A stretch of 64,000 bases of DNA from a virus (taxonomy: Duplodnaviria; Heunggongvirae; Uroviricota; Caudoviricetes), in the IMG/VR virus record IMGVR_UViG_3300031867_000007, positions 1 to 64,000 of that record; one strand, given 5' to 3'. Every line of letters begins with the position of its first letter. The first letter of the stretch is position 1. The notes under the pieces were generated by a model that was not told where the DNA came from, made no database searches, and worked only from the letters and a program-made list of their open reading frames with translations. Made by a program: the position numbers and the translations under genes. Positions 17,480-38,388 of this stretch are shown piece by piece.

Positions 17480-17515
17480 GAGAGGATAACTTATTATTTA
17501 TAAGTTATCCTCTTC
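17480..17515 (-). terminator. Rho-independent terminator
   Basis: The stem agaggataactta is paired with taagttatcctct. Confidence 0.5.
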
Positions 17516-17791: not shown

Positions 17792-19065
17792 TAAATACTA
17801 CCTGGCTCCCCATCATCTTCAACAATTAATCAAGCACTATAAGGTGGCATTGTATTAGCAACTGAGGCTACTCCGCTATCATTTTCTTCTCCTGCAATAG
17901 CTCCAACTCCAGTACCATTTCCAATATAACCTAAATCCGCCCAATCATTTTTATTATCATAAGTGGCTGGATTAATTAAAGAATTTCTTTTTTCTGGATC
18001 AGCATAATAAACTAATAAATGGTATCTATTATCAATAGCAGTTGCTATGATATAATTTAATGGTTGACCAATTTCTTCAGTATCTCCATTAGCATATGTA
18101 ATAACTACCTTTTGAGTTCCTGTCCCTTCAATAGAACCCGTATTAATGCTAACGTTACTAGGAATTCTTAATTGATAAGTATCATTATCATCATGAGTAT
18201 ACTCAATAGTAATCATACCTGTGGCGGAAACTGTAATATTGCTAATTTTATTATAATCTCCTACATAATAGGTTTTCATATCACCATTTTCTTTTTCATC
18301 GTAATGGTAATAATCATATACTAATATCTGCCTATGATTAGCAATATCATCTGCTTGTCCTACATAACTTTGAACAGTATTATCTGCAACCATTACTCTA
18401 AAATTTTTAAAAGCATCTCCTTTAATACCTTCAGGAATTGAGATATTTCATTTTTCATAAAATGGGTGAGTACCATCATCTATTCTTGTTGCTTCTAATG
18501 TATCTGTATAATTTCCATTTTTGTATGGCTTAACTGAAGTTGTTATATAATCAATTACTGTATAAGGAAATTTAAATCCAATATGCGCAGTTGATTCATG
18601 TGAATTTAAATCTCTTACTGAACAATAAGCTCATTTAATCTCATCATTATATTTAATAATTCCAGAACCTGCTTCAATATATTTTCCTGGAACTAAATTT
18701 TCATCTGTTTTACTATAAGAGCCACTTCCACGTCTATATGTAAAATCTTCTCTTTCTTGGATTTGCTCTACTTCATCAATAGTATGCATTTCCGTATGAG
18801 GCGCCATTCCTGCTGGTCCAACTATTTGGCCTTCATACACAGCTCCTCCCATAGAGTTATTATATTCATAACCTCTACGATATATTTTACCATTATCTTT
18901 ATCATTTTTATTTTCAGTATCAATTAAAACATATTCATCATAATTGACAGTTTTATAATCTCCGCCTTGGCTAAAGGCAGCAATCATTTCCGCAATTGTT
19001 GAATATCTTTTGGCTATAACGAAGGAAGCACCTCTTCTTCCTCCATAAAAACTATTATATTCCAT
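17791..19065 (-). CDS. Putative baseplate/tail protein (424 aa)
   Basis: Track ORFs 18631-19065 and 17830-18393 plus their gap form one frame across TGA codons at 18631, 18448 and 17830. GGAGG RBS. Confidence 0.5.
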
Positions 19066-19077
19066 GTGCTATCCTCC

Positions 19078-19782
19078 TTAATATTGATAATCTAGAATAA
19101 AATATTTTTCATTAGCTTCAACTATAAAGCCAATAAAAGTTGTATTTATTCCATTGTTTATCTCATATAGTCCACTTCTACCAATTCTAATAGGTTCTCC
19201 ATTGATGCTCATTAATAATCCTGGAGGCCCCTGAACACCAATTTGTTTTAATGTACCTTTATTTTCGATAGAAGTATTTAAATAATTTATAACATTATAT
19301 ATTTCATCTAGTCTATCTATTGAAATATTCATTTCTCGTCCATAGGTTCCATCTGGTTTTAAAGTATTATAATCAATTAATTCTCTATTTAATTGAAAAT
19401 AGATTTGATTATAAGTGTGATTATCATTAGGGCTTAACACTAATTCAAATATATCATAATCAGTTGGATTTCCTGCTGGTATTTCAATATCTTCAATTTT
19501 TTGAACATTATCTATTATTTTTTCAGTATTAACAAGTCTTATAGTTATTTTTTGAACAGTATCTAGTTTATATATCTTAAATCTTATATAATAACTTCTT
19601 TGTTTTCCATCACTTGTTAATGCTTGTAATATATTATCTCCTTCTAAGTCAATACCTTTATCTATAAAAACTACACCTGTAGAAAGACTTGATTCAACTC
19701 TTAAATCATTAAGAGTATAGTCTAAAGGTGATAAATAATCAGAGTATTGACTCTTACGGAATTGTCCAAATTTGTAACTCAT
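19078..19782 (-). CDS. Putative baseplate/tail protein
   Basis: The ATG at 19780-19782 has an AAAGGAG RBS. Confidence 0.45.
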   Translation of the reverse strand: MSYKFGQFRKSQYSDYLSPLDYTLNDLRVESSLSTGVVFIDKGIDLEGDNILQALTSDGKQRSYYIRFKIYKLDTVQKITIRLVNTEKIIDNVQKIEDIEIPAGNPTDYDIFELVLSPNDNHTYNQIYFQLNRELIDYNTLKPDGTYGREMNISIDRLDEIYNVINYLNTSIENKGTLKQIGVQGPPGLLMSINGEPIRIGRSGLYEINNGINTTFIGFIVEANEKYFILDYQY

Positions 19783-19801
19783 TCTAAACACTCCTTTTTA
19801 T

Positions 19802-21886
19802 CTAAAATCTTTCTAAAGCTCTTGTAGCTGATATTGACATCGTACTACTTATATCAAGAGGAATAGAAATACTTGAAATCATATAATCTCCATAAATATC
19901 ACTTTCAATATCCCTAACCCCAATTCTTGTATTCGGTTCTAAATGATAGATTGGAATACTTTGAATAGTAATACTTTCATTATAACTTGTATATTCATGC
20001 AACATCATTTTTATTTCATTAAATGCTGAATTGGATGTTCCACCAAGAGCAAGTAAGTTAAATATTCCTGTAGTTACTTGAATATAATTTTGACCTTTAG
20101 CTTCACATTCTGCACGCTTTTCATCAGTATCAGGTTGACCTAATTCTATAATAATAAAGTCAGGTATATCTGGTTCAAATACACAGTTTATATCATTTCT
20201 ATTAACAACTTGACTGCGGCGACCGATATTGCGAACATTGAACTGCGATATTGCCGCAGCAGAGTCTATAAAATCTAAATAGTAATTTATATCACTAGGT
20301 GTTTTTAATACCTCATCATAAAAGCCACCTGTATAAATAGTTTCACCTTTATCATCTATGTAAAAATCCTTTTGTAGATTATACAGCTTTGGCCACTCAT
20401 TCATTAATTCAGTATAATAGTAATTAGAATCTGTTCCCAATGGTTCAGCTTGAACTCCTTGTAAATATAATTCACTTCTTCAATCTGTTGTTTTAACTTT
20501 TACAAATTGAGTTGTTTCACTATCTACTTTAATATATTGTTTTAAATCTCCATCTCAATAGTAAATAGTTCCTGTGCTGGTATCTTTGTAGTATACGCCT
20601 GCTGCGCCATTAGTTTTAACTATTTCCGCATAATTACTATACAATATAGGCATTTTCGCTTTTGTTAATCCATCGTCTGGATCTTCATAGAAAAATACAT
20701 CATATATATTTCCAATAGCAGGTTTAGTATCAATAGCTAAATGATATCTAATAGGAACATCATTTCCATTAGCATTTTTTCTAATACCCCAAACTACAAA
20801 ATCATTTTTAATTTTATTAAATTGAGGGCTATTAGAAAATGATGTAACTAAATTACTATTATTAAATTCATATACTGTTTTACCTTTGCTAGCATCAATT
20901 AAATAATCATTTTTATTCATTGTTTCTAAATCTAATGTTGCTTTTGTTGTATTTAAATAATTTTTAATTTCTTGTCAATGGAAATTTCCTTCTGTATCAT
21001 AGAAATATTCATAATTTCCAAGCATATTTTTAATTTTATCTAAAATAGTACACACACTATCTCCAGCATTGCCAATTAATTCATTAGGACAAGTAAAATC
21101 TGTAAATATATATCCAACATCTTCACCATATTCAAACATTTGATAAGTATGACCTGCGGCATCCGCATAATTAGTTGACATTTCATATGTAATTTGTTTG
21201 TTACCTTCTTCATCTTCACTAACAATAGTAATTAAATATAGTGGTGTATTTCCAATTCATTTCATTACTTTTTTTATTCTTGAAGGTACATCAGATATAA
21301 TTATTTTTCCTAATTGCTCTCCTCCAAAATGGTTAACTACCTCCCTAATAATTTGTTCAAAAGTAGGTTTTGATATAACTCAATTTCCATCTTCATCAAT
21401 GGTTTCATATTGATCAAATTGCGTTGATGCAGGAATTATACCTCCGCATTCTCCATTTAATAGACACATCTTATCTCGTAATGAAACTTGTAATGAAACT
21501 CCTCCAGTCGAATGACTTAATGAAGGAGCTATCATAACAAATGTTCCTTGTGGAAATCAAATCTTTTCATATTTAATATATTGGTCTGTTGTATTAACAT
21601 AACCAATTTCTAAATACATTTTTTTATTTATTGAGAACAAGTTATCTAAACTTGTTATATTTGCATTTTCTTCTTTATCTATATAGCAAGATAAATTAAC
21701 AGTTCTTCTTACATTTGAGTTACCATCTAAATTAAGATTGCCACCTGTTACAATTCCTTGAACTTCTTGTATAGGTCTCTCTTCTCAATCTAATATAGTA
21801 ATTTTAACAAACTGCTCTTTTAAATGTTCATTATCTATTAGTTTTAAAAAATTTTTATCACTAGAATATTCATATACTTTTTTCAT
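19802..21886 (-). CDS. Tail-associated (Tal/prophage-tail-like) protein, 694 aa
   Basis: One frame fuses track ORFs 20975-21181, 20555-20920 and 19802-20440 plus upstream sequence across about 9 TGA codons. The ATG at 21884-21886 overlaps the previous stop. Confidence 0.5.
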
Positions 21887-24800
21887 TACTCTGCATACCT
21901 ACCTTTCATGATTTCACAATGATAATCAATCAAGGCTTCAACAGGACAAAGTAAATCATCATTATTTGTAAATAACCACCATTGGTTATTATGCCAAATA
22001 AATCTACTATTTGCTTCATCTATTAATCTTTGTAATATTAAAGCATATTGTCTATCTATTTCTTTATTTAATACTAAATGATAATAATCATCATAAGCTC
22101 TATTTAAACTAATAGTATATGTTGAACCTGATTTTGACAATTGACCTGAATTTGCGGAAGCAGTTGCTTCATCAGGTCACTGTTCACGAGATCTCATTGT
22201 ATAAACTCCATTTCTATATTGTCTATCACCTGTTGGTATTAAATCTTCTTCATGATTTAAATTATTTTGAGTTTCAATTTCCTCATCTTTAATTCCATCA
22301 ACATATAATGAACCTGTTCATATATCTCCACCAACTTGTTCAATTCATTCTTCATCTACTGTTAATCCACCATCATTATCAATAGGTTGTAATACTCTAT
22401 CAAATAATAATGTATAGTTTGATGAAGGATGTTCTATATTATCCTGATTAACTGATGCAGTATATTGTTCTGGTCATTGTTCTTTAGATTTAATACTATA
22501 CCATCCAGCAAATTGACTTTCGGCTGATTCTAAATAATCATCTGCAAGAGTATAAACACCATTCTTAACTAATTGAGATGTATCACTTACATATTTATCT
22601 AATATTATATTTGTTTCAATATATTTATTATCAGGTAGCGTTTCTCTTTCTTGTTCCGCGGCAGTAGCAGGTTCAAGATGTATACCAGCAAAGTATAGTC
22701 CTTCTATAGCAGAGTCTTCTGCATCAAGAGCTAAAGTATGAGTAGGCCCAATAACGTGTCTTTCGAAGTCTGTATCTGCAGACTCTTTAACAAATACAAC
22801 TGTCCCTGGTTCAGCTTCAATTTTTACTCCATCTAAAGATAACATCATTTGTTGATAATTTGAATATTTTTCAAAATATTTATTCCATATATTTTGATAT
22901 ATTGAATCATTTGGTTTAAATGCTCCTCATCTTTGTCCAACTCTTCTATAAAAACTATTAGTTTGAAAAACTTTACTAGTGTCTTCCGTTTGTTGTAAAT
23001 TAACATGATATTCTAAATTAATTTGAGTATCAACAGGGAAAGATAATGAAGTAATTTCCACATTCTCACCTTTTAATTCATATATACCTTCTGGATTTAT
23101 TATAATAGGTTTATTATTAACATAAGCTAAATAACCTAAGATGGCGGAATCTGGATTTTCTTTATCATCACCAAAATCGTCTACTACATAAGGGCCATCT
23201 TCACCCTCTTTAATTAGGTATGGGTCACTTTCAAATTCTAATCTTAAGAAATCTAAATTTTGAACTGCAATTTTATAATTTTCTTTTGCATATTTTTCAT
23301 ATTTCTTTTGAATTAAACTTAAAGTTTCTGTATTTGCAGGTATTACTTCATTATATTGTCCTATATAATCACTAGCAAATTGTAATTGAGTGTCATAAGT
23401 TCCTAATGGAGAAATACCATATTTGTCATAATTTTTAATTGTTGCCGCATCTACTTCATAAGCAGTTGCTGTAAATGAATATATCCTTCTACCCAATGTT
23501 GAATTAGGTGTTAAATTAATATCCATAATTTTAACGAGTATATTTCCTTCAGTAGCTGACCTAAATAATCTAACTTTATTTGCATACAAGAAATCCATAA
23601 CTTTTTCTCTAAATTCACGTTCGTAAGTTCAATCATTAAAGTCATCTATTCTTATATTCTCATTTTTATTAAATTCAGTATAATAATTTAAACTATCTTT
23701 AAACACTTCTTCTCTTGAAGTAATTAAATGATTTGGATCCATTAAATGAGTTATAGTGCCTCCAATAGGAAATTGTCTATATTCAACATACCCATTCCTT
23801 TTAATATATGGGTATTTACTTCCTATTGTATCTGTGCGGGATTCACTTACTGTGCGTTTAAATGAACTTACTGATGGATCAAACCTAATATTAAGTTGCC
23901 CATCTCCGCCAGTTAAATACATATCATCAAATAACATCATAAAGGGTTCTCCAGGTGGATGAATTGCAATTCCCCTAATCCCCATACTTGTTCTTTTTTG
24001 TGCTATATATTTGTAATATACTCCGCTCTTAATAGTATAATCATATCAAGTATAATCTAATTTACTATTTTCTTCAAAAGATTCAGTGTGAACATCTTCT
24101 CATATAGTAAAATTACTTTCACTAGACGTTCTTCTAATAGTAATATTTCCAACAAAATTTTCTTGACCCACATTATTTACAATATTTATTCCAATACATC
24201 CATTAACATTATCAAGAATTGCGGTCATTGTAGCATCTAATTTCTCTGCTCCTTCTTGAAGAACCATAAATTCATATGTATTACTTTCAATATACATATT
24301 AGCAGTTTCATATTCAAAAGTAAAATAATAATTTTCTCCTTCGTTGAATTGATATTCAAAAGTGTAATTAAATTCATTAATATTTGAATAAGTATTTGAA
24401 TATAATAACCCGCTATCAGACAATAGCTGGTTATCAGCATTATAAACTTTTATTTGATAACTTTTTAAAGTATCTGTCTCTGCGGGGTCTAAAAAAATTA
24501 ATTTCCCAACTATATCAACATTATTTAATGACCACAGTGTCACATCTGCATTAGAATCAAAACCTAAAATATTTAAACTAGGCACACTAATGCCTCTAAT
24601 TAAACATGCTGTAGATCATTCAGAAAAGTTTGATAGATTTGAGGCAAGCCAACTATCAATCGCTTGAGGCGTGTCTAGAGATACATCAGCGGCAGGTGCC
24701 GCAGTAAATCTAATTTGAACTTTATAATATTGATTTATTTGAAAACCTTCTTCAATATCACTAGTTTTTATCTCAATATAATATTTATCATCTGATACTC

Positions 24801-25047
24801 TTGTTAAATCAGTTTTAATGTCAGTTAACATAATTTCACAAGGATATTTACTTTTATTTAAAACAGATAGATTAGTATTTTGATTAGCAACTGTTACTTG
24901 TGCATTTTTTATATCATTTAAACTATTATATAAAGAAATAGAGAAATATACTCTACAAGTATTTTTTTGTATATCACTACTTCCCACTAGAAACGCAGGC
25001 ATATAGGTATCCACAATTGGTGGATATAAATTAATATTAACTGCCAT
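21886..25047 (-). CDS. Large (1,053 aa) distal-tail/baseplate protein
   Basis: Track ORFs 24616-25047, 24100-24585, 23629-23985, 22927-23598, 22474-22848 and 21886-22140 are all in one frame separated by TGA. AAGGAGAG RBS. Confidence 0.5.
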
Positions 25048-25077: not shown

Positions 25078-25527
25078 TTACTTACTTTCTTCTTTTTTAT
25101 GAATTACTGATACTATTGGTAATGCTCTTATATCTTTCATAAAACCATCTATAAAAGTATTCCCATCTTCTTCTTTATAGTGTTTGTATCTAGCTTCTAC
25201 ACATTGAAGATTATAGTCATCAATATAGCCTAAATCATAACAAAAATAATGATGTTTTTCAGTAATCCAAGCCTTAATATCGTCTTTATCTGACTCTGTT
25301 AAAATATTAATTGATTTAGCCATTTTATCAATTTGTTTATTGTGTGATTCTAATGTATCTATTATCTTTTGATGTAATTCTTCTACTGATTGTTGTTTAC
25401 TTGTTGTTTTTGTTATTCTGTTTTTTGCTCAATCATAAAAATCAACAACACCTTTAATAGCAAATGCTAACATTACAATAAAAATAGCTATATCAGTTAA
25501 TGAATAATTTTTAAGTAAATCTAACAT
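25078..25527 (-). CDS. Small membrane protein with an N-terminal TM helix
   Basis: The frame extends upstream of the track start across TGA to the ATG at 25525-25527, which has a GGGGAGAG RBS. Confidence 0.4.
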
Positions 25528-25605
25528 TCTATATCTCTCCCCTATAATTCTCATAATTTTATCTAATAATATATAAGAGTTTAAGGAAGAAGATTAGATA
25601 AATTA

Positions 25606-25640
25606 GACCAAAATAAAAAAGGTCAAAGTTTTTATCTTTG
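25606..25640 (-). terminator. Rho-independent terminator
   Basis: The hairpin aaaggtcaaag...ctttgacctttt has a T-run. Confidence 0.5.
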
Positions 25641-25766
25641 ACCTTTTATAAATACTATATTAAAAAGTTATATTTCTTCTAAAGTTATATATATCCAAAA
25701 ATATATCATTATATTTTTGATTTGTATAAGTCCACCCTTCTGCAGGAGGCTCAATTACTAAACAAT

Positions 25767-26249
25767 CTATCTTTCAATTACATATAGCAAAATATTTATA
25801 TTAGGATCTGCATAAATAACTGGTAACATCATAAGACGTATATTAGCAAATTCGCTATTTATATCAGTTACATCAGAAAGTGTCGCAAATGGATTTAAAT
25901 CACTTGTAGCACTATTTAAATAATCTAATGCATCATTACAATCTTTATCTACTACATAATTATCTTCAATTAAATAATTTTTACTATCATAAAATACATG
26001 ATATGCTTTTACTTTTATTTTTGTTCTTGTATTTTCTACATTTGTTATTCTAAATGCTTGTTCTTCTTGTGATATATTAGCTACTAATATTCTATTAGAA
26101 ACTAAATCTTTAATATAAGAAAGTGAAGTTTCTAAATTAAGATAGAAGTCTCCGTTATCTTCTTTATGAATTTTAGCTTTTAAAGGTAATATAATTTTAT
26201 CTCCATTTGAAGAATAAATTTTATCTGTTATATCATATAACTTTATCAT
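25767..26249 (-). CDS. Hypothetical protein downstream of fibre gene 3
   Basis: GGAGG RBS. Confidence 0.45.
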   Translation of the reverse strand: MIKLYDITDKIYSSNGDKIILPLKAKIHKEDNGDFYLNLETSLSYIKDLVSNRILVANISQEEQAFRITNVENTRTKIKVKAYHVFYDSKNYLIEDNYVVDKDCNDALDYLNSATSDLNPFATLSDVTDINSEFANIRLMMLPVIYADPNINILLYVIER

Positions 26250-26266: not shown

Positions 26267-28126
26267 TTACGAACTATAGCTATTATAAACTTCCCAGCTA
26301 GTACCGTTAAATATCCAACCTGCTCCTGTATTTGTACTCTTAGGTGATGAATAAACAATATCACCTTTTACTGCATCATTTGTATTTGTTGGAATAGTAG
26401 GTGTTATCATAATATCTTGGTCTTCATAACAAGATAAAAAATCTTTATATTTATATTCTTTTAGTACCATACCTGCTATTAATGAAGATGTTGTTGTACT
26501 TGGGTCATTCCAATGTATAAATGTCCATATTGCACCTATTTCTGTTGTTGGTGTTACTTCTATTCTTATCATTCTAGGCTTTGTTCTATCACTGTTAGTT
26601 CCTATTTGGAAATTATAATATGAAGTTGCAACACCTAAGTCATCAGAACGAACTGCTAAATATCCATTACTGCACCATGCATATATTTCTAATACCATTT
26701 TTTTGCCTACTAAATGTTTTGGAACTTTGTAATAGAAATATGAATAACCAGCTTGTTCTGTAGCAGTTCTCGTAAATGTAAGAACTTTACCACCAAAAGG
26801 ATTAGTTAAACTGCTATCAAATTCCATATGGTCAGCAGGGCTAGATATAATATAATCATTCATAATTGGATTTTTTAACGTTCCATTAATAACATAGTTT
26901 TTAATAGGCTTTAAACTCCTTAGTGGACTATAACCTTCCAATAAAACATAAGGGAATTGATTATGATTAGTATTTGCGGTTGAAGGTACAAATTTAACAT
27001 TATCTAAATAAATTTCATTTAAGTTACTATCACTATCGTAAATAGAAGATAAAGAATTTGTAATAGCATTATTAGATATAACTAATACTCCACCATTAAC
27101 AAATACTTTTGAACCTTTAGTATTACTTTTTAAATTAAATATTGATATTTTATTACCTGCCTGTTCATAATTTTGTGCAATTAATCCTATTGTACAATTC
27201 TCAAAATATGTTGTACTACCATCATTAGCATCTAATATTGATACATCTTCAGTCGTTGTTTTTGTATCACCAAAATATGTATTTTTAAAATACATTGTTC
27301 CTGAATTTTCAATACATTTTACATTATTTTCAAGACTGCATTTATCAAAACAAATAGTATTTGTATCAGTTGCAACCTCTTTGATTGCTAAATTACAAGC
27401 ATTAAAATGACAAGCATTGAAGTCTAATACACCTATCCAGTTGCTTGGAGATGAAGGATTTCCAATTTCAATTCCAGTTTCACCTGCTACCCATACGTCT
27501 ATAAACTCTGAATAATAAGCTGTTGGTAATTTCATTCCATACTTAAAACCATTTTGTATAAATACACTTGTTAATCTTTGTCTTTGACCTGGTGATAAAA
27601 TTCTTATAGCTGTTTTGTCAGAATAATTATTAGGATTTGCAATATTAATATTTTCTATTGTGCATTCATTATACATAACATCAATACAACTATCTTTATT
27701 TTCTTCTTGATTTATTGGTTTTGCACTATTTTTAGTTATTCCTGATAATTTAGTACTATAAACTTGAAAATAATTTGTAGTAGGTAGTTTTTCTCTTTGT
27801 ATTCCATTGCTAATAATTAAATTTGCATATAAACCATTACTTAAAGTTTCGTAGTAAGTACTTGAAGTTGATGCAATATCATATATTGCTCCGCCGTTAT
27901 CTCCTACTGTTGAATAATATTTTGTTAATACCATATCTCCAACTTTTAATTTTGTATCAGCTTTCATATCCACAACAGAGTTATAATAATAAGGTTTTTT
28001 ATTTAATTTATAAGCAACACTTTCACCATCTACATCAACATTTTGAGCTTCAGCGCCAATAGGAATATAGTCAGTAAAAGTTCCATCTTGCTTTTTAATT
28101 TTAATCTTTTTTATTAAATTTGCCAT
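26267..28126 (-). CDS. Tail fibre/tailspike paralogue 3 (shared N-terminal anchor, beta-helix-like C-terminus)
   Basis: The N-terminus MANLIKKIKIKKQDG...KKPYYYNSVVDMKADTKLKVGDMV is homologous to the genes at 29983 and 32094. AAAGGAGA RBS and ATG at 28124-28126. Confidence 0.55.
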   Translation of the reverse strand: MANLIKKIKIKKQDGTFTDYIPIGAEAQNVDVDGESVAYKLNKKPYYYNSVVDMKADTKLKVGDMVLTKYYSTVGDNGGAIYDIASTSSTYYETLSNGLYANLIISNGIQREKLPTTNYFQVYSTKLSGITKNSAKPINQEENKDSCIDVMYNECTIENINIANPNNYSDKTAIRILSPGQRQRLTSVFIQNGFKYGMKLPTAYYSEFIDVWVAGETGIEIGNPSSPSNWIGVLDFNACHFNACNLAIKEVATDTNTICFDKCSLENNVKCIENSGTMYFKNTYFGDTKTTTEDVSILDANDGSTTYFENCTIGLIAQNYEQAGNKISIFNLKSNTKGSKVFVNGGVLVISNNAITNSLSSIYDSDSNLNEIYLDNVKFVPSTANTNHNQFPYVLLEGYSPLRSLKPIKNYVINGTLKNPIMNDYIISSPADHMEFDSSLTNPFGGKVLTFTRTATEQAGYSYFYYKVPKHLVGKKMVLEIYAWCSNGYLAVRSDDLGVATSYYNFQIGTNSDRTKPRMIRIEVTPTTEIGAIWTFIHWNDPSTTTSSLIAGMVLKEYKYKDFLSCYEDQDIMITPTIPTNTNDAVKGDIVYSSPKSTNTGAGWIFNGTSWEVYNSYSS

Positions 28127-28230
28127 AGAGCATCTCCTTTCATTCATAAATAAAATTATCTGATTTTATTTCTAATACTATATAAAAAAAAGGGTAAATT
28201 AATTATATTAATCTACCCTTCTCATTATTT

Positions 28231-28635
28231 TTATTCTTTATTATTATCTGTATTTGAACTAATATTTGCCAAATTAGTAATTCCTTCAATTGCTTTTTTA
28301 GCTTGTATAGTAATAGTAGAAATAACTATTCCTAATATTCCAACACTTGAAAATGTATTCAAAACTTGATTTGAAATTAATTCAGTACCAAAAGAATTTG
28401 TAATCATTATATTGATAAAAGGTAATATGGTAAATGCTATTGATACAAAAGTAGCACTAATAAAAAATATCAAAACCTTAATAATACCTTTTATCATCTT
28501 TTTTCAATCAAATTTTTCTTTATTATTTCATATATTAACTAATGTTTGTGTTGTAATATTAACAATAGCAAGGATACCTAATACTATACCTAATCAGCCC
28601 ATTATTGTTAATGTATTTAAAATTGCTTCTCACAT
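28231..28635 (-). CDS. Holin (predicted multi-TM protein)
   Basis: The frame extends upstream of the track start across TGA to the ATG at 28633-28635, which has a GGAGG RBS. The product is hydrophobic with a charged C-terminus. Confidence 0.55.
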
Positions 28636-28709
28636 ATTTATACCTCCATTGCGGTGACTCGATTACCAATTTTTAGTCCAATTCTCTATCCGGTGACCGA
28701 GCTTCCGCA

Positions 28710-29651
28710 TTATCTAAATAAAGATTCGAATGTATTTTTTCCTACGATTCCATCTACACTTAATTTATTATCTGCTTGATAATTTTTAACTACATTCATA
28801 GTCTCATTTCCAAATATTCCATCAATTCCTAAATAATATTTTTTACAATATAGTATTGATTGAATAATTTTTGTTATATTTCCTTCTGCGCCTTGCTTAA
28901 CATTTCTGCAAGCCGCTTTTGTTTGATTTCCAAATATACCATCTACTACTAGTTCAGTTCCAAATTGTATATTTAATTCAGTTTGTAAGCCTTTTACAAG
29001 TGCTTTTTTAGTTTGACTACCATACAATCCATCTTCTGCAATATTTGTATTATAATTATTATTTAATCAATTTTGTACTGATCTTATTTTATCATCTCCA
29101 GTAGATGGCTGAGGCGTAGGCTGTGGTTGAGGTGCTCCGCCATCCAAAATAGTATTAACTGTATCAGCTAGTTCGTTCATTCTACTTAATAAATATGGAC
29201 CTGGACAATCTGTATTAGCAAACATATTATGTGTAGTTAAACTGCCGTTTGGTGTTCCATCATAATATAATCTGAAATTATATCTTCTACATACATCTAC
29301 TGCTAAATTAACTAATGTATTCCATGCCTTATCTGAAACTCTCCACTGTCCGCCTATTTCACAATTTGATACTTCTACTGTTATAGCTTGAAAATCATTA
29401 TTTCTACTTGATGACGTTCATGCCCTGTTTTCTTCTTCTACATTGCAAACTAAATCTCCTGCATTGCCTATACAATAATTAGCTGAAGCATTTCTGTTTG
29501 GATTTTGAAATTCATTAACAGCACATTGTTCACCAGACAATATCCCCGCCATCATATGTGGCGTAAATTTACATATTTTATAACCGTTTCTGCCTTTTGT
29601 ATAATTATTAAAGTGTGCTAAATACACGCTATTACATAAACTAGAATACAT
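28710..29651 (-). CDS. Endolysin: N-acetylmuramoyl-L-alanine amidase (Amidase_2/PGRP) plus three PG_binding_1 repeats
   Basis: Track ORFs 29418-29651 and 28710-29027 are in the same frame across seven TGA codons. Carries ASANYCIG...VEE..RAW...AITVEV amidase_2 motifs and GIFGNQT, GIFGNET and GIVGKNT repeats. Strong GGAGG RBS. Confidence 0.8.
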
Positions 29652-29654
29652 AAT

Positions 29655-29902
29655 TATCCTCCTTCTTTTTCTTTTAAAGCTTTTAATCTTATATATATTT
29701 TCTTTAGTTGTTGAGTAATACTTCTCTCGCTCTCTAAATTTATATTTCCTATGATATCTTGAACACTTCTAACATTTTCCATATCAATATTTCTGGCGTC
29801 TGCAGAAATGAAGAATGACTCTTCACTAAGGAAGCCATCTTGGTTTTTTATCTTTATTACTTTAATTTTATCTATAAGTTCATCCCTTTCTAAAACTTTT
29901 AT
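29655..29902 (-). pseudogene. Start-less remnant of the conserved tail-fibre N-terminal module
   Basis: The frame encodes ELIDKIKVIKIKNQDGFLSEESFFISADARNIDMENVRSVQDIIGNINLE..QQLKKIY, which is homologous to the N-terminus of the 29983-32064 protein. No ATG, GTG or TTG start is present, and its TAA lies inside the endolysin RBS. Confidence 0.45.
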
Positions 29903-29955
29903 CTAATAAGATATAAAAGTTTTAGAAAATAAATTAGATAATTTAGTCCAAAATA

Positions 29956-29988
29956 AAAAAGCTTATTCATTAAAGAATAAGCTTATAC
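29956..29988 (-). terminator. Rho-independent terminator after fibre gene 2
   Basis: The hairpin aagcttattc...gaataagctt has a T-run. Confidence 0.5.
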
Positions 29989-32064
29989 TTGAACACCAGT
30001 TGCATCAACCCACTTTGAACCAGTATACCAGATTGGTTTACCTAGGGTTGTATCAAAAAACATAATACCTTTACTCCAATTTGATAATACTGTAGGTCTT
30101 TCGCTTGTTGTTCCTAATAAAACTTGTTGTATTACTCCATAATGAACATCTCTCATATATTTAACTTTAGAACTATATATTGTATCACCTTTAGCAAAAG
30201 TACCTTGAATTGTCGTAACTGTTAGACTCGTTGATGTAATTGCTGTTATCGTTCCTGTTGCTCCATTATTGTTCGTTATTGTATCGCCTACATTGAATAC
30301 AAAACCACATTTTGTAGCCTCATTATCATATAAAATACTTTCAAATATTAAATTATTATTTGAAATATTACTAACTGGATTAACTATATAAATTTGATTT
30401 TCTAAATCTCTTTGCTGAAACATCGCAATACCTGTTTTATTATTGCCCTGATTTACAAATAAATCGCCAACTTTTCCATTTTTACTATAACTGTTATCGC
30501 TGTCAATGCCACTCATTGGTGAGTTGTAAGAATTAAATCAAATATTACCTTCTTTTACATTTTTGCCATTCAATGAGTAATCAGATAAATCGTAAAAATA
30601 ATCTGTAGAGTAAATTGGCGCCAGCGAGTATCTGTTTTGCGTATATGTGCCTCCTTTGTTATCATTATTGACAGTTAAAGTACACTCGCTTGAACCACTA
30701 TTTTTTGTTAAGAATTTATATTTTGAAGGTCTACAGCTGTTTAATATAATATTTGAATTTGTTCCAAAAGCTATAAATTTTCCAGGAAGATCGGCGTTTG
30801 CATTTCTTCCTAAGGAAACGGCAGTTAAATTTACCTTAGAACCATTTGAAACGATTAATGTAGCATTTGAATCTGTTGTATTTGCGTATAGGTATCCACT
30901 ATTTATATTAATTGTTGAATTCATAAAATATAGTATATTTAATGCTTTAGGACTCTCTGAACCCAACGAGCCAATATTGAAATTTGAACCCTCAAAATAA
31001 TATGCCGTATCTGTTGCGAAATCACAAGCAAGATTTCCTATATTAGAATAAACAACACCCACAAATTTAAATCCATTTTTACAACCAAGACAATATATCT
31101 CATTAATAAATAATGTTGTAGCATTCGTTCCACATATAAAACCAATTTCTGAACAATTATATATAAGTATTTTATTGAAAGTACATACTCAAATATTATT
31201 TGTTTTTATACCATATTTACAAGTCGATATACTAACATCTTCAATAACTGTTCTAGTACCTCCCACTTCATAATAAATGCCATAATCAGTTAACGAATTT
31301 CCATATAATTTAATATTATATACTTTTATATCTTCACAATAATTAAAATTTGAATTATAAGTCTTAAAATATAAGATAGTGTTTATATTATTATATTTAG
31401 AATTATTAGTTTTTATTAGTCTTGATCGGCTGCCTTCTAACTCTAATCCATTAAATAACACGATTGGGCCTTTAATATTATATTCATCTTGCTTATAAAT
31501 TTTTAGTTTTGAAATATTATTATTTAATGCATATTCTATCGCCTTGTTAAATATTGGAGTGTTATCTTCCAAATCACTAGATAATCCGATAGCATTCAAA
31601 TTTATTTCATTATCAATGATTAAAGTAGCATATAATTGATTTTCAAGCTCCTCTTGATAATCGGTTTGACTTTCAATACTTACTATCTTATATTCAGCTC
31701 CGCCGCCATCATTTGGCTCATAGTATCCAAGTGTAGTTACCATATCACCATTTTTTAATCTAGTGTCTGCTTTCATTTCTGCAACAGTATTAAAAAAATA
31801 GGTTTTCTTTTTGATATCTGTATTCAGAGTAATTACCTCTTCTTTTAAATCATCTACATCGCTATATAAACTGTCATATTTTTTATATTTCTTTAATTGT
31901 TCAGCTATGTTACCATCTTCATCAATATTAATATCTCCAATTGTATCTTGTAAATCTCTACCATTTTCCATATCAACATTTATCGAATCAACAGAAATAG
32001 TATAGGTTTCTTCACTAATTGAACCATCTGGATTTTTTATCTTAACAGTTTTAATTTTATCCAT
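29983..32064 (-). CDS. Tail fibre/tailspike paralogue 2 (693 aa)
   Basis: Track ORFs 31189-32064, 30538-31062 and 29983-30516 are in one frame across TGA. It carries the shared N-terminal module. GGAGG RBS. Confidence 0.55.
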
Positions 32065-32093
32065 AAATTAAACCTCCTTTTCTATTTTATAAT

Positions 32094-33644
32094 TTAAAAG
32101 TAATTTGTGTCTAAGACTATTAATTGATATGCATTTCCCGAACTAATTGTGTATCTTATACACATATATAATTTATGTGCTGTTAATTCTGAGTCACCTA
32201 TAATAATATTATTTTCACCATCTACAAAATTAATTGTACCACCTTTATACAAAACTCCTATGAAAAAATAAGTTAGGTAAGGTGATAAACTACCAGAAAC
32301 ACTAGAATCATTAGACATTATATCAGGTAGAATAACTGTTAATGTTTTATTATCATCAACACCAGCTCTAATAAATAAACCATTATAACAACTGTCTATT
32401 GTTCTGTCATTATTATACAGACTAAGTTGTGGTTGATATAAAGGTTTTATATCAAACCAACCATTTTTTTGATAAACGGCTTCTTCTGATATGATTACTC
32501 CTCCTGCTCGCATAAACCCTATAAAATGAATAAATTCATTTGTACCAATAAATTCAAATAATGTTCTAGTTAAACCAGGCCTTACACTTTCCCATTTGAT
32601 AACATCTTCACAACAATTATTAAAGCTAAACCAATGCGAACCTGTAAAACTTTCTGTTGCTCTAAAATTTTTAAAAATATTACATTGTGTGTAATTTAGT
32701 TTAATACCAATACTTGAAATTCCTTCTAAACCAAAATTGAAGAATTTATTACCATTAAACCTGTCTGTTTGTTCTGTTCCCTTTTGTGTTTCGATTCCAA
32801 TAGCAGATGATATTCGACCACCATAAAATTGATTTTCGTTAATCCATGGGTTGCCATTATTACCGCATTTTAATAAAATTCCATGTTCCGTTGTATACAT
32901 GCTATTCCAGCTTATTTTGTTGTATTGTATACCTTTTGTATTATTTGATTCTAATATAATACCCTTTTTAGTATTTAAAATTGAACCCACGTTTAAATTC
33001 AAACTAGCTACTATATTCGTATCTGCTAATATATGAATACCATTTCCTATATTTGTAGATGTTATATGATTAATGTTAATATTAGCACCAGAAATATTAT
33101 CAATTTTAAAAGCATCAATATCATTTAATAATATAATATCTCCACAACTTTCAAAATTACATAGTGAGGTTCCAAACACCAAAGTAGAAGATATTGCATG
33201 GTTACCGTTACAAATTACTTTATATTTATTACTAGCTAAATTAATAGCTTTTTGAATAAAAGTACTATCATTAGTAATTCCATCTGCTTTAGCCCCCAAC
33301 TGTTTTGGATTTATTGTTTCATTAAGCAAAAGAGTAGCATAAAAGCCATTATTTAATAATTCTTGATGTTTAGATGTGTCCTGTGTGCTAACAATTACAT
33401 ACTCTCCTGAACCACTATCATTTGGCTCATAGTACCCTTCTGTAATTGCCATGTCTCCAGCTTTCAACTTTGTATCTGCTTTCATATCTGCAACACTATT
33501 ATAATAATATGGTTTTTTATTTATTTTATTAACCAAAGTTTCTCCATCTTCCATATCTATATGTTCAGCATCAACAGATAATGGAATAGAAGCGCTATAT
33601 GAACCATCTTGCTGTTCTAATTTTATATATTTTAATTTATCCAT
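32094..33644 (-). CDS. Tailspike with right-handed beta-helix (pectate-lyase-like) domain, paralogue 1
   Basis: Carries the shared N-terminal module plus NGNHAISSTLVF-type beta-helix repeats. GGAGG RBS. Confidence 0.6.
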   Translation of the reverse strand: MDKLKYIKLEQQDGSYSASIPLSVDAEHIDMEDGETLVNKINKKPYYYNSVADMKADTKLKAGDMAITEGYYEPNDSGSGEYVIVSTQDTSKHQELLNNGFYATLLLNETINPKQLGAKADGITNDSTFIQKAINLASNKYKVICNGNHAISSTLVFGTSLCNFESCGDIILLNDIDAFKIDNISGANININHITSTNIGNGIHILADTNIVASLNLNVGSILNTKKGIILESNNTKGIQYNKISWNSMYTTEHGILLKCGNNGNPWINENQFYGGRISSAIGIETQKGTEQTDRFNGNKFFNFGLEGISSIGIKLNYTQCNIFKNFRATESFTGSHWFSFNNCCEDVIKWESVRPGLTRTLFEFIGTNEFIHFIGFMRAGGVIISEEAVYQKNGWFDIKPLYQPQLSLYNNDRTIDSCYNGLFIRAGVDDNKTLTVILPDIMSNDSSVSGSLSPYLTYFFIGVLYKGGTINFVDGENNIIIGDSELTAHKLYMCIRYTISSGNAYQLIVLDTNYF

Positions 33645-33717: not shown

Positions 33718-33936
33718 CTAATTTGTCCCTTCTTCGTTATCATTTGCGGCAGCCGGTTCTTCATCCTCAGAGTTAGATTTTTGTGCGGTTGTCGCATCTT
33801 CTATTCTACAATATTCAAAATATTTTTCTTCAATCTCTTGCATAATACTTTTCATAATAAAATATACTGCATCAATTGACATTCCACTTTCATTAATTGT
33901 TTTTACAATTTTTTGTTCAAAATCTCTAAAAATCAT
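33718..33936 (-). CDS. Small acidic protein (possible fibre assembly factor)
   Basis: AAAGGAGA RBS. It is followed by a hairpin terminator at 33699-33730. Confidence 0.4.
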   Translation of the reverse strand: MIFRDFEQKIVKTINESGMSIDAVYFIMKSIMQEIEEKYFEYCRIEDATTAQKSNSEDEEPAAANDNEEGTN

Positions 33937-33951: not shown

Positions 33952-36900
33952 TTAACTCTCTTTATAGTCTACTAATATACCTCTACTAAAATATAAACTT
34001 ATATTTTTCCCATTTCTATCAGTCCAAGAAAAAGATATATTAGTTAACCCGCTATCTTTATTAGGTTTTCCTGTATATAATAAGTCTCCTGTGCTAGTAA
34101 GAATTTTTAAATCCCCTTTAAATTCCATAGAAGCTTGATTAACTATTCCGCCATCTCCAACATTCAAGCCAGAAACTGCAGGATGTTTTGGGTACCTCTC
34201 TCATTGTGAGCCCGCTCCCATCTGCAAATATCCACCATTCGCGGAAACATCTATCGTACTACCAGTAATAGCAGAACTGCTTATACTACCAGAAAAATTT
34301 CCTCCACTAGCATGCAAAGTACCATTATTTTCTACTCTAAAATTATTTCCATAATCTATTAAATCCCCTCTACCGCTATTATATCCAGTACTAGTAATTT
34401 TAATGTTACTAAAAGTTGCATTTCCATTAGCATCAATCTCTCAGTTTGGACCTTTTAAACGACCTGTCGCATAAATATGTGTATTTCCATTACTACTTTT
34501 TAATTCTTCAGAAGTAATAGTTCAACCACCTATTTTTCCACTCTCTGCAGTTAAAGCTCCAGCATTAGTTACCTTAAAATCCTCACCTATTTGTAGAGAA
34601 CCACCTGTAATAGATACATTACTTGCGGTTAAAGCTCCATTTTTAGTAACTTTAAATGTAGAATTTGCTCCAAGAGATATTCCATTAGTTCCAATATAAA
34701 CTCCGGCATTTTCTGAATCTATAGTATCTTTATTATTGTAAATAGCTGAACTACCAATGGTAAATCCACCAATTTTTCCGCTATCAGCAGTAATTTCACC
34801 TTTTATAATAGCATCTTTTGCATATAATTTACCATCTTTATCAACAGCAAATCTATTATTTATTGCTAAATTTAAATTTTCTCTACTAGTTCCATTAATA
34901 GTTCTAGTAAATACACCATCACTACTTGAAAATCTAACATTAGTAGTACTACTTTTAGTTCCTGTAAAAATTGAATCGTCATCTATGTTAAAACCAGCTA
35001 TTGTACCTCCGCCTTTTGCAGTAATATGACCATTAACATCAACTTTAAAATTTCCATTTCCTCATTCGATTAAAGGAGTTGTTAAATCAATAAGCATACC
35101 ACTATTATTTTTATTAGCAGAACCATAGCTAGTAGGCTTTCCATCATCTTTATAATTTTTTCAATAACCATTACTATATAACATAGCTTTACTTGCGGAA
35201 GGGTCTATAATAATCTGTCCTGGGCCGCTTTTCCCAAATATCGCAGAACCATCTTTAGAATTTAAAAATAAACTTCTTTCTCCAGCGCTATATCCGAATA
35301 TTCCAATATCAATTGTATTTTTACCAGCTTCTTTAACGCTTCCCATTAATACACCGGTAAAACTATTATCACTTTCTTTCTGACCAGCACCTATCTGAGG
35401 AGCTAATATAACTCCATTCCCATTTTTATCTATACTAACACTATTGCCATCTCATCCATTAATTGCAGCATGCCCATATTTATTTAATAATAAATGAATT
35501 GGAATGTGTATTCGCGCAACTTCAGTATTACTATTATTTTTTATAATACATTCAAGACCATTAGTTACACACTCTCCATTAAAATTATCTAATGGCTTGT
35601 AAGAGGCTTGATTACGTGCTAATATCATATCTTGTCTATTATATAATCCTAAATGTAAACTATTTACTCAACTTGAATTTACTGAATCATATATTCTTCC
35701 TCTAATATTTCAGTTATAAGTAACCGCATTAGACTGAGTCAATGTACTTATATCTTCAGTCACATTATTTATAATTTTTGTAACCTTTAACTCAAAAGGA
35801 TTAGAATTATCATATTGCGGTTTGCGACCGTCTGCACTATAAGTTGCATATCTAAAACCAGTCCCTTCATTTAAAGAGACTCCATATCCATTTGAAGCCG
35901 TCGCAGTAATAACTGGTATTGTGCAATAATACTGCACATTATCATACGTAACTGTTGCTTTTACTATATTTGCAGGTGAGTTTACACCTTCATAATTTAA
36001 ATAAGTAAATACTCCTGCAGTAGTAACACTTAAGCTTGTAGTATCATAAAGATTAGTTGTATATTTATTTTTTAAAATACTTCATTGAACAACTGCACTT
36101 TTATTTTCGCTAGTATTTCCAGTCGTACTGCCTTCAAAAATTTTAGTTCCATTATGCCATAATTGAACATTAAATCATCTACCACTTTGTCTAGGTGTAT
36201 AATTAATATTTCCATTTAATATCATTGGATATCCAAAATCAGTATTTTGAGTATTAGGAACTATTCTACAAACAAATTCAGTACCATTAGTTCCAGGTTC
36301 TCCCTCTTTTACAAAAGTAAAATCAGTTTCTGTAACTAAATTCATACCTTTATAATTTACAGTTAATTGAATTGTATTATTTGTTTTTCTTACATCATAT
36401 TTATCGTTAATATTATAATAAATTACCTTCTTATCTTTAATCATTAAAGAATTATTATATGGTAGTCATGGATAATCTTGATTTTGTGTTACTTTTATTA
36501 ATGTATTCTCAGAAGGCGCTATTCATTTTATCTCACAGTTAGAAATTATATCATCATCAAGAGCATTTCCTAAATTATCATATACTGTAAAACTCAATGG
36601 TAATATAATTTGTGGATTATCTAAACTATTACTTGCTGGTGAAACTCCTGATTCATTATATTTAAAAGTTTGTGAACCATTGTTTAAAACTAAACTATAA
36701 GCATCTTTTTTATCTAAACTATTTTTAATAACAATAGAAGAAGTGCCAATATAGACACCATTATGATAGACAGAACATTTATAAGTTGCAAAATTTGTTA
36801 TTGTATTTATTTGTAAATGATGTATTTTTCTTCCTTCTATTCTCATGATTTTATCATAACTATTAATCGTTGTCAAATACGTATTTAATTGATCTTGACT

Positions 36901-38388
36901 AGCTGCAGCCATTGCTGTTTCTGCGGCAATTTTTGCTTTAAGGCTTGTATAACCAGCAACCGCATTATTATAAGTATTATTATCTACTGTTGTTTCAGCT
37001 AAAGAATAAAAATTATTATTATTATCTATCTCCGCCCATTGATAAGTATAACTATTACTAGTTGATTCTTGTCCATTTATTAAACAAGTTAATGTAGGGT
37101 TACCAATATCATAATAAAATTGTTCTCCTTTGTCAGAAATAATAGAAATTTCATAAGTAGATGAATAGTTAGTTATAGTAAAAGTTTTACTTAATATAAT
37201 ATCATTATAAATAACTACACATTTATACTTGGTTTCTTTTGCTGCGCTATCACTTTTTCTTACTGTATATTTATAATTTGCGGGAATTCATTCTACTACT
37301 GGAGCAATTCCATTACCACCACTTTTAACTACATTTTTTGAATTTAAACACTTTCAGCCTTGCCCGCCATAAGCATTAAAATTTTCGCTTAAACTTGTAA
37401 TTCCATTATTTTCAACAAATCAATAATATGGTAATTTTTGTGTATCTGGATTTATATATTTTCCTTTAACTCTAACCTGTGCTTGAATAGCTCTAGTAGC
37501 ACTAGCTAAATCATTTTCATCAAAATAAACACCTTGAGGTGTTATAAAACTTAAGCTACATGATTCTAAATCAGATTCGCTTAAGGCTTGACTTCCACAT
37601 ATTTCAAAATTTTTAATAAAAATATCATTTGGTTTAGCAGAGTCTTGATTAGGAAAATCATAACAAAATAAAGATATTTTATTTATATATTGAAAATTAA
37701 TACCATCTATATCAAATATTCCAACTTGTCTTTTAAAATTAGGCATTTTATAAGGATTGCCTTCAAATTGATTTACATCTAATACATAATTTCTAGTAAC
37801 TAATTCTTCACTACCATTATCTTTAAAAACCATTTCATATAAAATTCCATAGTTTCCTCTAAATTGTTGCTCAGTAGGTAAGCTAGTTTTTATTGTAGCT
37901 GCTAAGATAATAGAAGTTGATGATTTTATATATTCATAAATACTTTTTAAATTAAGTCTTAAATGATTAGCAGAACTGCTATTTTTATTATATATTATAT
38001 ATTCATTTGTTGTTTTATAACTACATAAATTATAACTTTTATTGCTTTCAACACAATTATTCCCAATTACTTCAAAAGCCTCTTCACCTTCTGCGGAAAC
38101 TGCATAATTCTTACCCAGTTTACTCACAGAACCTAAAATAGTTTTATCTCTACTCATATCATTACTAGGAACTAAAATATAGACTTCAGAACCATTATTG
38201 TAAGTAACTTCAGAACTTCCTGAGTAGGCATAGAATACGCTATCTTGATACTGAACTTTATATTTTCCAATAGTTTGATCTTCGCAGTTAATAATTTTTG
38301 CTTGAATTGTTTTATCATATCCAGCTTTCTTAACTGCACTATTTACAATAGTTTCAATAGCATCAAGTATTTGATTTTCATACTTCAC
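33952..38388 (-). CDS. Giant tail fibre (about 1,478 aa) with a Met-free Gly/Ser/Thr/Asn repeat region
   Basis: Track ORFs 37420-38388, 36523-36912, 36175-36444, 35710-35937, 35161-35346 and 33952-34167 share one frame. All gaps were translated and contain TGA but no TAA or TAG. GTG start with an AAGGAG RBS. Confidence 0.55.

Follow-up and report, generated by a model that had tools for sequence, protein, structure and literature searches.

Three tailspike-like genes and a lysis cassette in a recoded genome

This analysis deals with a gene block of an uncultivated tailed phage from the gut or rumen that has a genome of about 142 kb. The sequence analyzed, called the window below, is a stretch of 64,000 nt (Caudoviricetes; positions 1 to 64,000 of the IMG/VR record IMGVR_UViG_3300031867_000007); a metagenomic contig of 142,554 bp carries the exact sequence of the first gene considered here. 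Between positions 26,267 and 33,644, three minus-strand genes encode tailspike-like receptor-binding proteins (RBPs), termed P1 (516 amino acids, aa), P2 (693 aa) and P3 (619 aa) according to the list of open reading frames (ORFs) and the gene calls of the source contig. An Amidase_2 endolysin gene and a holin-like ORF are both located between P2 and P3, in agreement with a preliminary description of the locus (Table 1). For P3, the most likely start is MANLIKK at position 28126, which yields the 619 aa of the source gene call, and not the upstream ATG at 28147.

With the standard bacterial code (table 11), P2 falls apart into three ORFs (31189–32064, 30538–31062, and 29983–30516), the lysin gene is also split into three ORFs, and the holin-like gene is shortened. 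Read in one frame, the region 29983–32064 comprises 693 codons with two internal stops, both of which are TGA (31189–31191 and 30538–30540). When TGA is taken as a sense codon, the coverage of the window by long ORFs increases from 51 to 80 kb, and the coding density obtained with code 4 is 93%. In-frame TGA codons occur in 25 of the 40 minus-strand genes and in 11 of the 17 plus-strand genes of the window. In the conserved tail genes, the TGA codons of the window are paired with TGA (115 cases) or TGG (46 cases) in the orthologues of five related phages. Because of this pairing and of the gain in coverage and density, TGA was assigned to Trp, and code 4 applies throughout the window. The gene calls of the source contig (516, 693, 313, 134, 619, 160, 149, and 1053 aa, and additionally 2791 and 1478 aa) are consistent with this code. 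Neither a tRNA, including a TGA suppressor, nor a match to an Rfam family was found within the window. The preliminary description had located the three ORFs correctly but had not mentioned that P2 and the lysis genes depend on TGA being read as Trp; an annotation with the standard code badly fragments exactly these host-range genes.

A shared N-terminal module of two parts

The N-termini of P1, P2, and P3 are homologous. In composition-adjusted BLASTP comparisons, P1 and P2 were aligned over P1 residues 1–139 with 36% identity and a 44-aa insertion in P2 (E = 7e-28), P1 and P3 over residues 12–140 with 44% identity (E = 7e-27), and P2 and P3 over 71 aa with 54% identity (E = 4e-15). Smith-Waterman alignments of the N-termini, evaluated against 500 shuffles, gave z values of 33 (P1–P2), 41 (P1–P3), and 25 (P2–P3), and the first 42 or so residues alone still gave values of 13, 16, and 7. 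For the C-terminal parts, the z values were 0.1–0.9, that is, no sequence similarity was observed. Thus, the similarity is confined to the N-terminus and lies far above the background of low-complexity sequence. An N-terminal anchor of about 85 aa in front of different C-terminal domains had been proposed earlier; both the sharing and the different C-terminal parts are borne out, but not the length, since the shared module has about 110 aa in P1 as well as in P3, reaches 154 aa in P2, and consists of two parts.

The probability that the composition of an AT-rich genome merely simulates this resemblance, and that P2 is a decayed pseudogene, is practically negligible. The GC content of the window is only about 28%, and table 11 would indeed interrupt P2 twice, but the alignment statistics given above and the use of TGA as Trp throughout the window refute this explanation, and an identical, intact 693-aa P2 protein is on record (P0121), in addition to a 56% identical orthologue elsewhere.

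A hidden Markov model (HMM) of the module, applied to all ORFs of at least 60 aa, detected only three copies in the window. The HMM splits into sub-module A (positions 1–42) and sub-module B (positions 42–111). All RBP genes of the variable block described below carry sub-module A, including those with bodies other than beta-helices. Sub-module B, a cap domain of about 65 aa, is restricted to the beta-helix bodies and missing from the other cassettes; it is conserved in 275 of the 289 homologues that were collected, and it was also detected in unrelated phages, namely in SPO1 gp17.2, in a "pre-neck appendage protein" of a Cobetia phage, and at two further loci (L004 and L005). Because A is found on all RBPs, while B travels with the beta-helix bodies and occurs in unrelated phages, the phage-specific anchor would be sub-module A with its roughly 42 aa (the adaptor), and sub-module B would represent the neck of the spike body.

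In P2, the insertion between adaptor and cap contains helices at residues 53–58 and 70–83, in a low-confidence part of the AlphaFold2 (AF2) model. In one homologue (P0099), a Phage_fiber_rpt domain (PF22337) occupies the equivalent place, and the insertion is probably a stalk extension. For P3, the homology breaks sharply at residues 100–119 in 203 of 264 matches. Full-length homologues of P3 in other phages start to match at P3 residues 33–48, behind at least four unrelated N-termini, which argues that the boundary between adaptor and body is a real recombination joint; one of the phages with a P3-type body uses the standard code and has a GC content of 43%. Residues 1–42 are unstructured in the monomer model of P3 and are also disordered in that of P2, as would be expected of a segment that folds only in the assembly. 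A search of the Protein Data Bank (PDB) with the module profile gave no significant hit, the best tailspike match being 8oq0 (E = 0.29).

The C-terminal bodies are predicted beta-helices

According to profile and structure comparisons, the bodies of all three proteins are predicted to be right-handed beta-helices of the tailspike type. For P1, a pectate-lyase-type beta-helix had been suggested, and a strict family profile built from 14 sequences that all span more than half of P1 indeed matched the pectin-lyase fold of 7chu (1.2e-8 over residues 109–495) and the phiAB6 tailspike (5.1e-6) in the PDB. The beta-helix match thus persists after partial homologues that could import the signal have been dropped. 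In the PHROGs database, the N-terminal part of P1 matches tail fibre and tailspike families.

The P2 family profile matched the phiAB6 tailspike (1.1e-15), phi29 gp12 (1.8e-11), and also mannuronan epimerases. The AF2 model of P2 is confident for residues 88–440, with a predicted local distance difference test (pLDDT) score of about 90 over residues 88–330. With this core, Foldseek retrieved AS12 gp42 of an Acinetobacter phage (1.1e-11) and other depolymerase tailspikes; a further match was Belisarius gp86, with a root-mean-square deviation of 4.0 Å across 441 columns. PHROGs assigned P2 to an unannotated family and its C-terminus to a "virion structural protein" motif, and the last 45 residues have a motif in common with Gp49 in PDB entry 9d83 (1.9e-7).

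For P3, neither Pfam, nor PHROGs, nor the PDB yielded a match at the sequence level, and the P3 family profile likewise had no significant match in the PDB. The AF2 model (pLDDT 83.9) comprises disordered residues 1–42, a small beta-domain at 46–104, a long beta-helix, and a C-terminal beta-sandwich. Its Foldseek matches in the PDB were tailspike protein (TSP) 4 of phage CBA120 (8.9e-11), the Klebsiella K2-2 TSP (1.4e-10), Kp7 gp52, and CBA120 TSP2, and the C-terminal jelly-roll matched carbohydrate-binding modules (CBMs) of the families CBM4, CBM16, and CBM61. The earlier expectation that P2 and P3 are beta-helical as well is thus supported by profile and model comparison for P2 and by model comparison for P3.

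The RBP bodies and the lysin are exchanged between conserved borders

The block was compared with six related loci, of which five are on contigs of 110–137 kb (one of them, L011, a cattle scaffold) and one is on a 46-kb IMG/VR contig; all counts for seven genomes given below refer to the window phage plus these six relatives. In IMG/VR, only three loci with the module were found. A blastn search with the block against 50,697 phage genomes yielded a single 2% match, which lies under an ORF of 160 aa downstream of P3.

In all six loci, the gene order is the tape-measure gene, a gene for about 1400 aa, an ORF of about 75 aa, one or two RBP genes, the lysin and holin genes, and one to three further RBP genes, followed by a 149-aa membrane protein and proteins of 1053, 685, 234, and 424 aa. 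The downstream tail genes are 87–97% identical between the window and the six relatives, whereas matches of the RBP genes cover only 5–34% of their length and are always N-terminal. A P2 orthologue is the only exception, being 56% identical over 88% of its length. The comparison across genomes that had been recommended in the preliminary description thus revealed that the RBP bodies were exchanged in the six related loci.

The variable island includes the lysis enzyme. An Amidase_2 lysin is present in the window and in two relatives, and a CHAP lysin together with a GIY-YIG ORF is found instead in the other four (L006, L007, L008, and L011). This swap places the lysin in the exchanged block. 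Across all loci, the lysins are of the CHAP type, Amidase_2 with CW_7 or PG_binding_1, or GH25 with LysM. The last type occurs in a more distant relative (L009, contig k141_913668 of 142 kb, block at 6203–20017), in which a GH25/CW_7/LysM lysin is again located between anchor-bearing RBP genes. The block of L009 has another position than that of the window and lies upstream of the gene for a 1506-aa protein, which is a homologue, with 46% identity, of the 1478-aa tail protein of the window; the source gene calls of L009 were made in the standard code and fragment its genes.

The borders of the block are conserved. Every relative has the small ORF in front of P1, with identities of 32–85%; in L009, its identity is 38%, and an RBP gene follows there as well. 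The 1478-aa protein is 58–74% identical in the relatives; its L009 homologue also adjoins anchor-bearing RBPs, and this protein might be the docking platform for the adaptors. At the downstream border, the 149-aa protein is 93–96% identical in four relatives and 72–74% identical in two. Its weak matches, to ATP-synt_B (mitochondrial ATP-synthase B), holin, and Rz-like spanin families, are the mixed annotations listed by Borges et al. (bioRxiv 10.1101/2021.08.26.457843) for the transmembrane protein of a recoded lysis cassette.

In all relatives, the gene behind the lysin gene is a counterpart of the holin-like ORF, with 63–83% identity. The window ORF itself has no direct match to a Pfam or PHROG family; its counterparts in L006, L007, L008, and L011 (63–65% identical) were called Phage_holin_4_1, with weak scores. 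In the window ORF, each of the four Trp codons is TGA, in agreement with the published idea that lysis regulators are preferentially recoded. The 126-aa GIY-YIG-like ORF between the CHAP lysin and the holin (L006 9096–9476, L007 7138–7518, L008 9075–9455, and L011 4490–4870) is absent from the Amidase_2 cassette of the window.

Terminator-like hairpins were found at five sites in the region (1.7 expected). Those behind P2, the holin gene, and the 160-aa ORF suggest three transcription units, that is, P1–P2, lysin–holin, and P3 with the 160-aa ORF. A promoter scan remained at chance level, with 75 sites compared with 70 expected.

The synteny also bears on the question whether P1–P3 could be soluble glycan-degrading enzymes that are released at lysis, in which case the N-terminus would serve oligomerization or regulation. 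Release at lysis would account for their location next to the lysin and holin genes: RBP genes of this kind surround the lysis genes in each relative and in L009, and terminators separate the units. However, the block is situated within the tail module, between the tape-measure and 1478-aa genes on one side and highly conserved tail genes on the other, the top structural matches are virion tailspikes, the PHROG matches are tail fibre and tailspike families, and no stretch resembling a signal peptide was recognized by eye in the N-termini. In addition, a conserved N-terminal peptide in front of a variable body is a hallmark of RBPs attached to the particle (Latka et al., 2019, PMC6872550). Therefore, we regard soluble enzymes as very unlikely and virion-attached tailspikes as the better explanation.

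Three adaptor subtypes recur in every relative

The adaptors fall into three subtypes, represented by P1 (subtype I, MDKLKYIKLE..DGSYS.SIPL), P2 (subtype II, MDKIKTVKIKN.DGS.SEE.Y.ISVD, followed by the insertion), and P3 (subtype III, M[AS]DLIKKIKIKKQDGTFTDYIPIGAEA). In all seven genomes, types I and II are each represented by exactly one gene and type III by one gene or two, and the type I gene always comes first among the RBP genes behind the ORF of about 75 aa. Over the first 40 aa, the identities are 66–79% within the types (type I 66%, type II 79%) and 32–42% between them. Because the subtype N-termini recur in every relative, the three genes of the window are old paralogues with orthologous N-termini, whose bodies were replaced. 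Since this set of subtypes is kept in each genome, the three subtypes probably correspond to three separate docking positions on the tail tip.

Alternatively, all three adaptors could use one and the same docking site, so that the spikes compete or are mixed stochastically, the virions are heterogeneous, and the subtypes reflect merely the ancestry of the gene positions. The adaptors are indeed homologous to each other (z of 7–16 over the first 42 aa), and type III is sometimes present twice per genome. Nevertheless, a single site appears improbable to us: the copy numbers of types I and II are strict, the position of type I is fixed in all seven genomes, and the higher identity within than between the types, despite the exchanged bodies, points to selection on subtype-specific contacts.

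The cassette repertoire and its codon usage

Sub-module A is located at the N-terminus of 242 of the 289 collected homologues, and the C-termini of these proteins form 134 sequence clusters. When 1.84 billion cluster representatives were searched exhaustively with P3 residues 1–112, 305 proteins matched at E ≤ 1e-10, and their number was 868 with the limit relaxed to E ≤ 1e-3; the module begins within the first five residues in 149 of the 150 best matches listed. The first approximately 105 aa are 60–73% identical in hundreds of proteins with differing C-termini. The domains found on the homologues include pectate-lyase, PF12708, and PF13229 (beta-helix) domains, GH39, GH43, and NAGPA phosphodiester glycosidase, and furthermore the metallo-beta-lactamase fold, metallophosphoesterase, and GDSL. 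RBPs without a beta-helix, with a GDSL esterase, metallo-beta-lactamase fold, or metallophosphoesterase body, are encoded at L007 2287–4164, L008 3366–5741, and L011 5424–12244. The non-beta-helix, NAGPA, GH39, and GH43 cassettes suggest an attack on phosphodiester-linked or acylated wall polymers.

The fold of P1–P3 and the sister hydrolase cassettes make a glycan-cleaving (depolymerase) activity plausible for these proteins as well. We consider it rather unlikely that the beta-helix bodies are adhesins that bind without cleaving. P1–P3 reach no glycosidase or lyase family in Pfam, and PfbA, a non-enzymatic beta-helix adhesin, is among the Foldseek matches. Yet the best matches are enzymatically active tailspikes and depolymerases, and it is the same adaptor that carries the GH39, GH43, NAGPA, metallophosphoesterase, and GDSL domains in the sister cassettes, which favors depolymerases over pure adhesins.

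The host might be a Gram-positive, Clostridia-like bacterium, to judge from the lysin types and from amidase domains 70–80% identical to that of the window, which were found on low-GC contigs binned with metagenome-assembled genomes of Clostridia; these amidase loci have neither the adaptor nor a holin.

All 12 Trp codons of P1 and P3 are TGG, and P2 has three TGG and two TGA. The conserved tail genes of the window (17791–25047 and 33952–38388) have 14 TGG and 35 TGA (71% TGA), and this difference from the RBP genes is significant (Fisher p = 2.8e-5). A general depletion of TGA in the RBP genes of the family was considered and rejected, because the fraction of TGA is 66% in the RBPs and 59% in the conserved genes (p = 0.24). 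The cassettes of the relatives are bimodal in this respect, some being free of TGA and some using almost only TGA; examples are a 732-aa RBP of L011 (seven TGG, no TGA) and a 627-aa RBP of L008 (one TGG, 12 TGA). This pattern suggests, but does not prove, that the cassettes are of mixed ancestry and that some were recently imported from phages with the standard code, because P1 and P3 use only TGG and P3-type bodies are present in standard-code phages. The cassettes may also move across genetic-code boundaries. A more far-reaching reading would join a tail tip with three sockets, several hundred bodies that can be mounted on it, and recoding as a one-way valve on the flow of host-range genes; we offer it as a tentative possibility. 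If it were true, cassettes would enter a recoded phage freely, but those laden with TGA could not leave, and the heads that can be mounted would include phosphoesterases, esterases, and glycosidases directed against Gram-positive wall polymers.

A probable modular tailspike set

In our view, this region probably holds the genes for host recognition and lysis of a tailed phage in which TGA stands for Trp, and P1–P3 are probably tailspike RBPs composed of exchangeable parts. Synteny, N-terminal homology, predicted folds, and swapping support the earlier notion of a modular multi-tailspike receptor-binding set that flanks the lysis cassette, with the depolymerase function as a putative property. 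In the proposed arrangement, an adaptor peptide of about 42 aa would plug the spike, presumably a trimer, into the tail tip, at one site per subtype. It would be followed, in type II only, by a short stalk of helices or fibre repeats, then by the cap domain of about 65 aa, and by the right-handed beta-helix body, which would bind and probably cleave a glycopolymer of the host surface. Optional distal parts would be a CBM-like jelly-roll (P3) or a conserved C-terminal motif (P2). The host range would evolve by recombination that replaces everything past the adaptor or past the cap; the lysin in the same block would also be replaced, and the flanking tail genes would stay nearly constant.

Several observations weigh against this interpretation or parts of it. 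The subtype pattern covers seven genomes of one lineage, and the contact of the adaptor with a tail protein is an assumption for which the candidate partners were chosen by synteny. P1 by itself has no significant match to a PDB sequence, so that its fold depends on the 14-sequence profile. The AF2 model of P2 is poor outside residues 88–440, and the TM-scores of the Foldseek matches are modest (0.3–0.46), although the probabilities are 1.0. The putative catalysis is deduced from the fold and the sister cassettes. Lastly, Pfam detected no family in P1, P2, or P3 themselves at E ≤ 0.1, and the thresholds of PF12708 and PF13229 were not reached. A full-length homologue of P2 (P0109), however, does reach PF12708 (4.7e-16; 59.7 bits compared with a cut-off of 27). 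Therefore, P1–P3 are divergent members of the pectin-lyase fold group, by fold and not by Pfam model.

Comparison with known systems

It is already well established that phages combine a conserved N-terminal anchor with swappable depolymerase bodies, and the present results extend this principle and overturn nothing. In the RBP systems described for Klebsiella phages and for T7/K1F, a conserved N-terminal anchor precedes exchangeable beta-helix depolymerase bodies, divergent RBP genes interrupt otherwise syntenic structural genes, and secondary RBPs have short conserved N-terminal peptides of about 29–70 aa (Latka et al., 2019). The block described here shares with these modular RBPs an N-terminus that is conserved in the group in front of an unrelated remainder, and a structural synteny that is broken by the RBP genes. 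It differs in several respects. The host would be Gram-positive-like, as suggested by the CHAP, Amidase_2, CW_7, and PG_binding lysins of the window phage and its relatives; instead of one anchor plus branching domains, the block has three adaptor subtypes that are homologous to one another; and the lysis cassette is embedded in the RBP array. No T7-fibre or T4gp10-like branching domain was found among the Pfam and PHROG matches.

The phages CBA120 (TSP1–4) and G7C have several different beta-helix tailspikes per virion, each at a defined position. The corresponding structures 5w6h, 6w4q, 5w6p, and 6nw9 were among the matches; the P2 and P3 models resemble TSP2 and TSP4, and the C-terminal motif of P2 weakly resembles the C-terminus of TSP3 (E = 0.28). 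The CBA120 spikes attach to one another via T4gp10-like domains in long N-terminal regions, whereas the conserved part is only about 42 aa here and a branching domain was not seen with Pfam and PHROGs. The combination of a cap domain with a pectin-lyase-fold beta-helix is also known from the pre-neck appendage phi29 gp12 and the tail fibre SPO1 gp17.2 of phages of Gram-positive bacteria, and with P1 as the tblastn query, its residues 24–163 were aligned to a pre-neck appendage protein (2e-7) and to SPO1 gp17.2 (3e-5). In contrast to P1–P3, phi29 gp12 and SPO1 gp17.2 have no sub-module A, have unrelated attachment regions, and are encoded by single genes rather than by an array with three slots.

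"Agate" phages, which are recoded at TGA, have genomes of about 127–154 kb and come from the guts of cattle and pigs, according to Borges et al. By code, size, and gut origin, the window phage fits this description: TGA is Trp, the source contig has 142.5 kb, and five of the six relatives are on contigs of 110–137 kb, one of them from cattle. Further likenesses to their description are that P2, with its two TGA codons, is directly upstream of the lysin, that the holin gene has TGA at four of four Trp codons, and that the cattle scaffold L011 has a name of the same style as a scaffold in that study. In contrast to that description, the early-type genes are recoded here as well (11 of 17). The window phage is a candidate member of this group. 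In the passages of that study that were consulted, there is no mention of an adaptor or cassette system of RBPs, and the term "tail fiber" is absent from its main text.

What is new here is the modular tailspike set in an undescribed family of uncultivated phages. It defines host-range determinants for a widespread family of large code-4 phages of animal guts, narrows the recombination joint precisely, either after about 42 aa or after about 110 aa, and lists at least 300 natural cassettes, which could be of use for the engineering of RBPs or for host prediction in Gram-positive anaerobes.

Neighbouring genes and further features

The 160-aa ORF comprises only the N-terminal approximately 135 aa of Tal/antireceptor-type tail proteins of 600–1360 aa, and its blastn match is to the antireceptor of Lactobacillus phage Ld25A/PMBT4. 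None of the six relatives has a counterpart; the ORF occupies the place of their second RBP gene behind the lysis genes (the second slot-B gene, that is, the fourth slot). It is probably the remnant of an imported or truncated gene.

Table 1. Positions of the genes, protein parts, and hairpins of the block in the 64,000-nt window.
Feature	Position	Strand	Remarks
1478-aa tail protein	33952..38388	-	follows the tape-measure gene; source gene call
72-aa acidic ORF	33718..33936	-	upstream border of the variable block; always directly before the type-I RBP gene
P1, type-I tailspike-like RBP	32094..33644	-	adaptor, cap domain, and pectin-lyase-fold beta-helix (predicted); no in-frame TGA
P1 adaptor (residues 1–42), subtype I	33519..33644	-	module HMM
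P1 cap (residues 43–111: PYYYNSVADMKADTKLKAGDMAITEGYYEPND...)	33312..33518	-	homologue conservation
P2, type-II tailspike-like RBP	29983..32064	-	uninterrupted only if TGA is Trp
P2 adaptor (residues 1–42), subtype II	31939..32064	-	subtype comparison
P2 44-aa insertion (residues 43–86)	31807..31938	-	between adaptor and cap; BLAST gap
P2 cap (residues 87–154)	31603..31806	-	HMM positions 24–111 at residues 67–154; pLDDT about 90 from residue 88
Terminator-like hairpin 3' of P2	29959..29984	-	
Endolysin, 313 aa	28710..29651	-	Amidase_2 and two PG_binding_1 repeats (Pfam 4.3e-12 and 2.4e-23); phrog_7698 (endolysin) 1.4e-46; 2 in-frame TGA
Holin-like protein, 134 aa	28231..28635	-	membrane protein with several transmembrane segments; identity to relatives
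Terminator-like hairpin 3' of holin gene	28187..28223	-	
P3, type-III tailspike-like RBP	26267..28126	-	adaptor, cap, beta-helix, and C-terminal CBM-like beta-sandwich (predicted); no in-frame TGA
P3 adaptor (residues 1–43), subtype III, MA[DN]LIKKIKIKKQDGTFTDYIPIGAEA	27998..28126	-	subtype comparison
P3 cap (residues 44–110)	27797..27997	-	small beta-domain 46–104 in the model
160-aa ORF	25767..26249	-	own ribosome-binding site and downstream terminator; phrog_1067 3.9e-27, profile positions 7–145 of 991
Terminator-like hairpin 3' of 160-aa ORF	25617..25647	-	end of the variable block
149-aa membrane/coiled-coil protein	25078..25527	-	downstream border, by conservation; 158 aa from the upstream ATG (25078–25554)

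Outside the block, the window contains an early-type module on the plus strand at 537–12718, of which the first two ORFs look, from their sequence motifs, like NrdD (anaerobic ribonucleotide reductase) and its activase NrdG. A strand switch and a change of sign of the GC skew are located near 12–13 kb. The tape-measure protein (38503–46878, minus strand) has 2791 aa, a PhageMin_Tail domain, and 15 in-frame TGA codons; by the rule that relates the length of this protein to that of the tail, 2791 aa would imply an unusually long tail.

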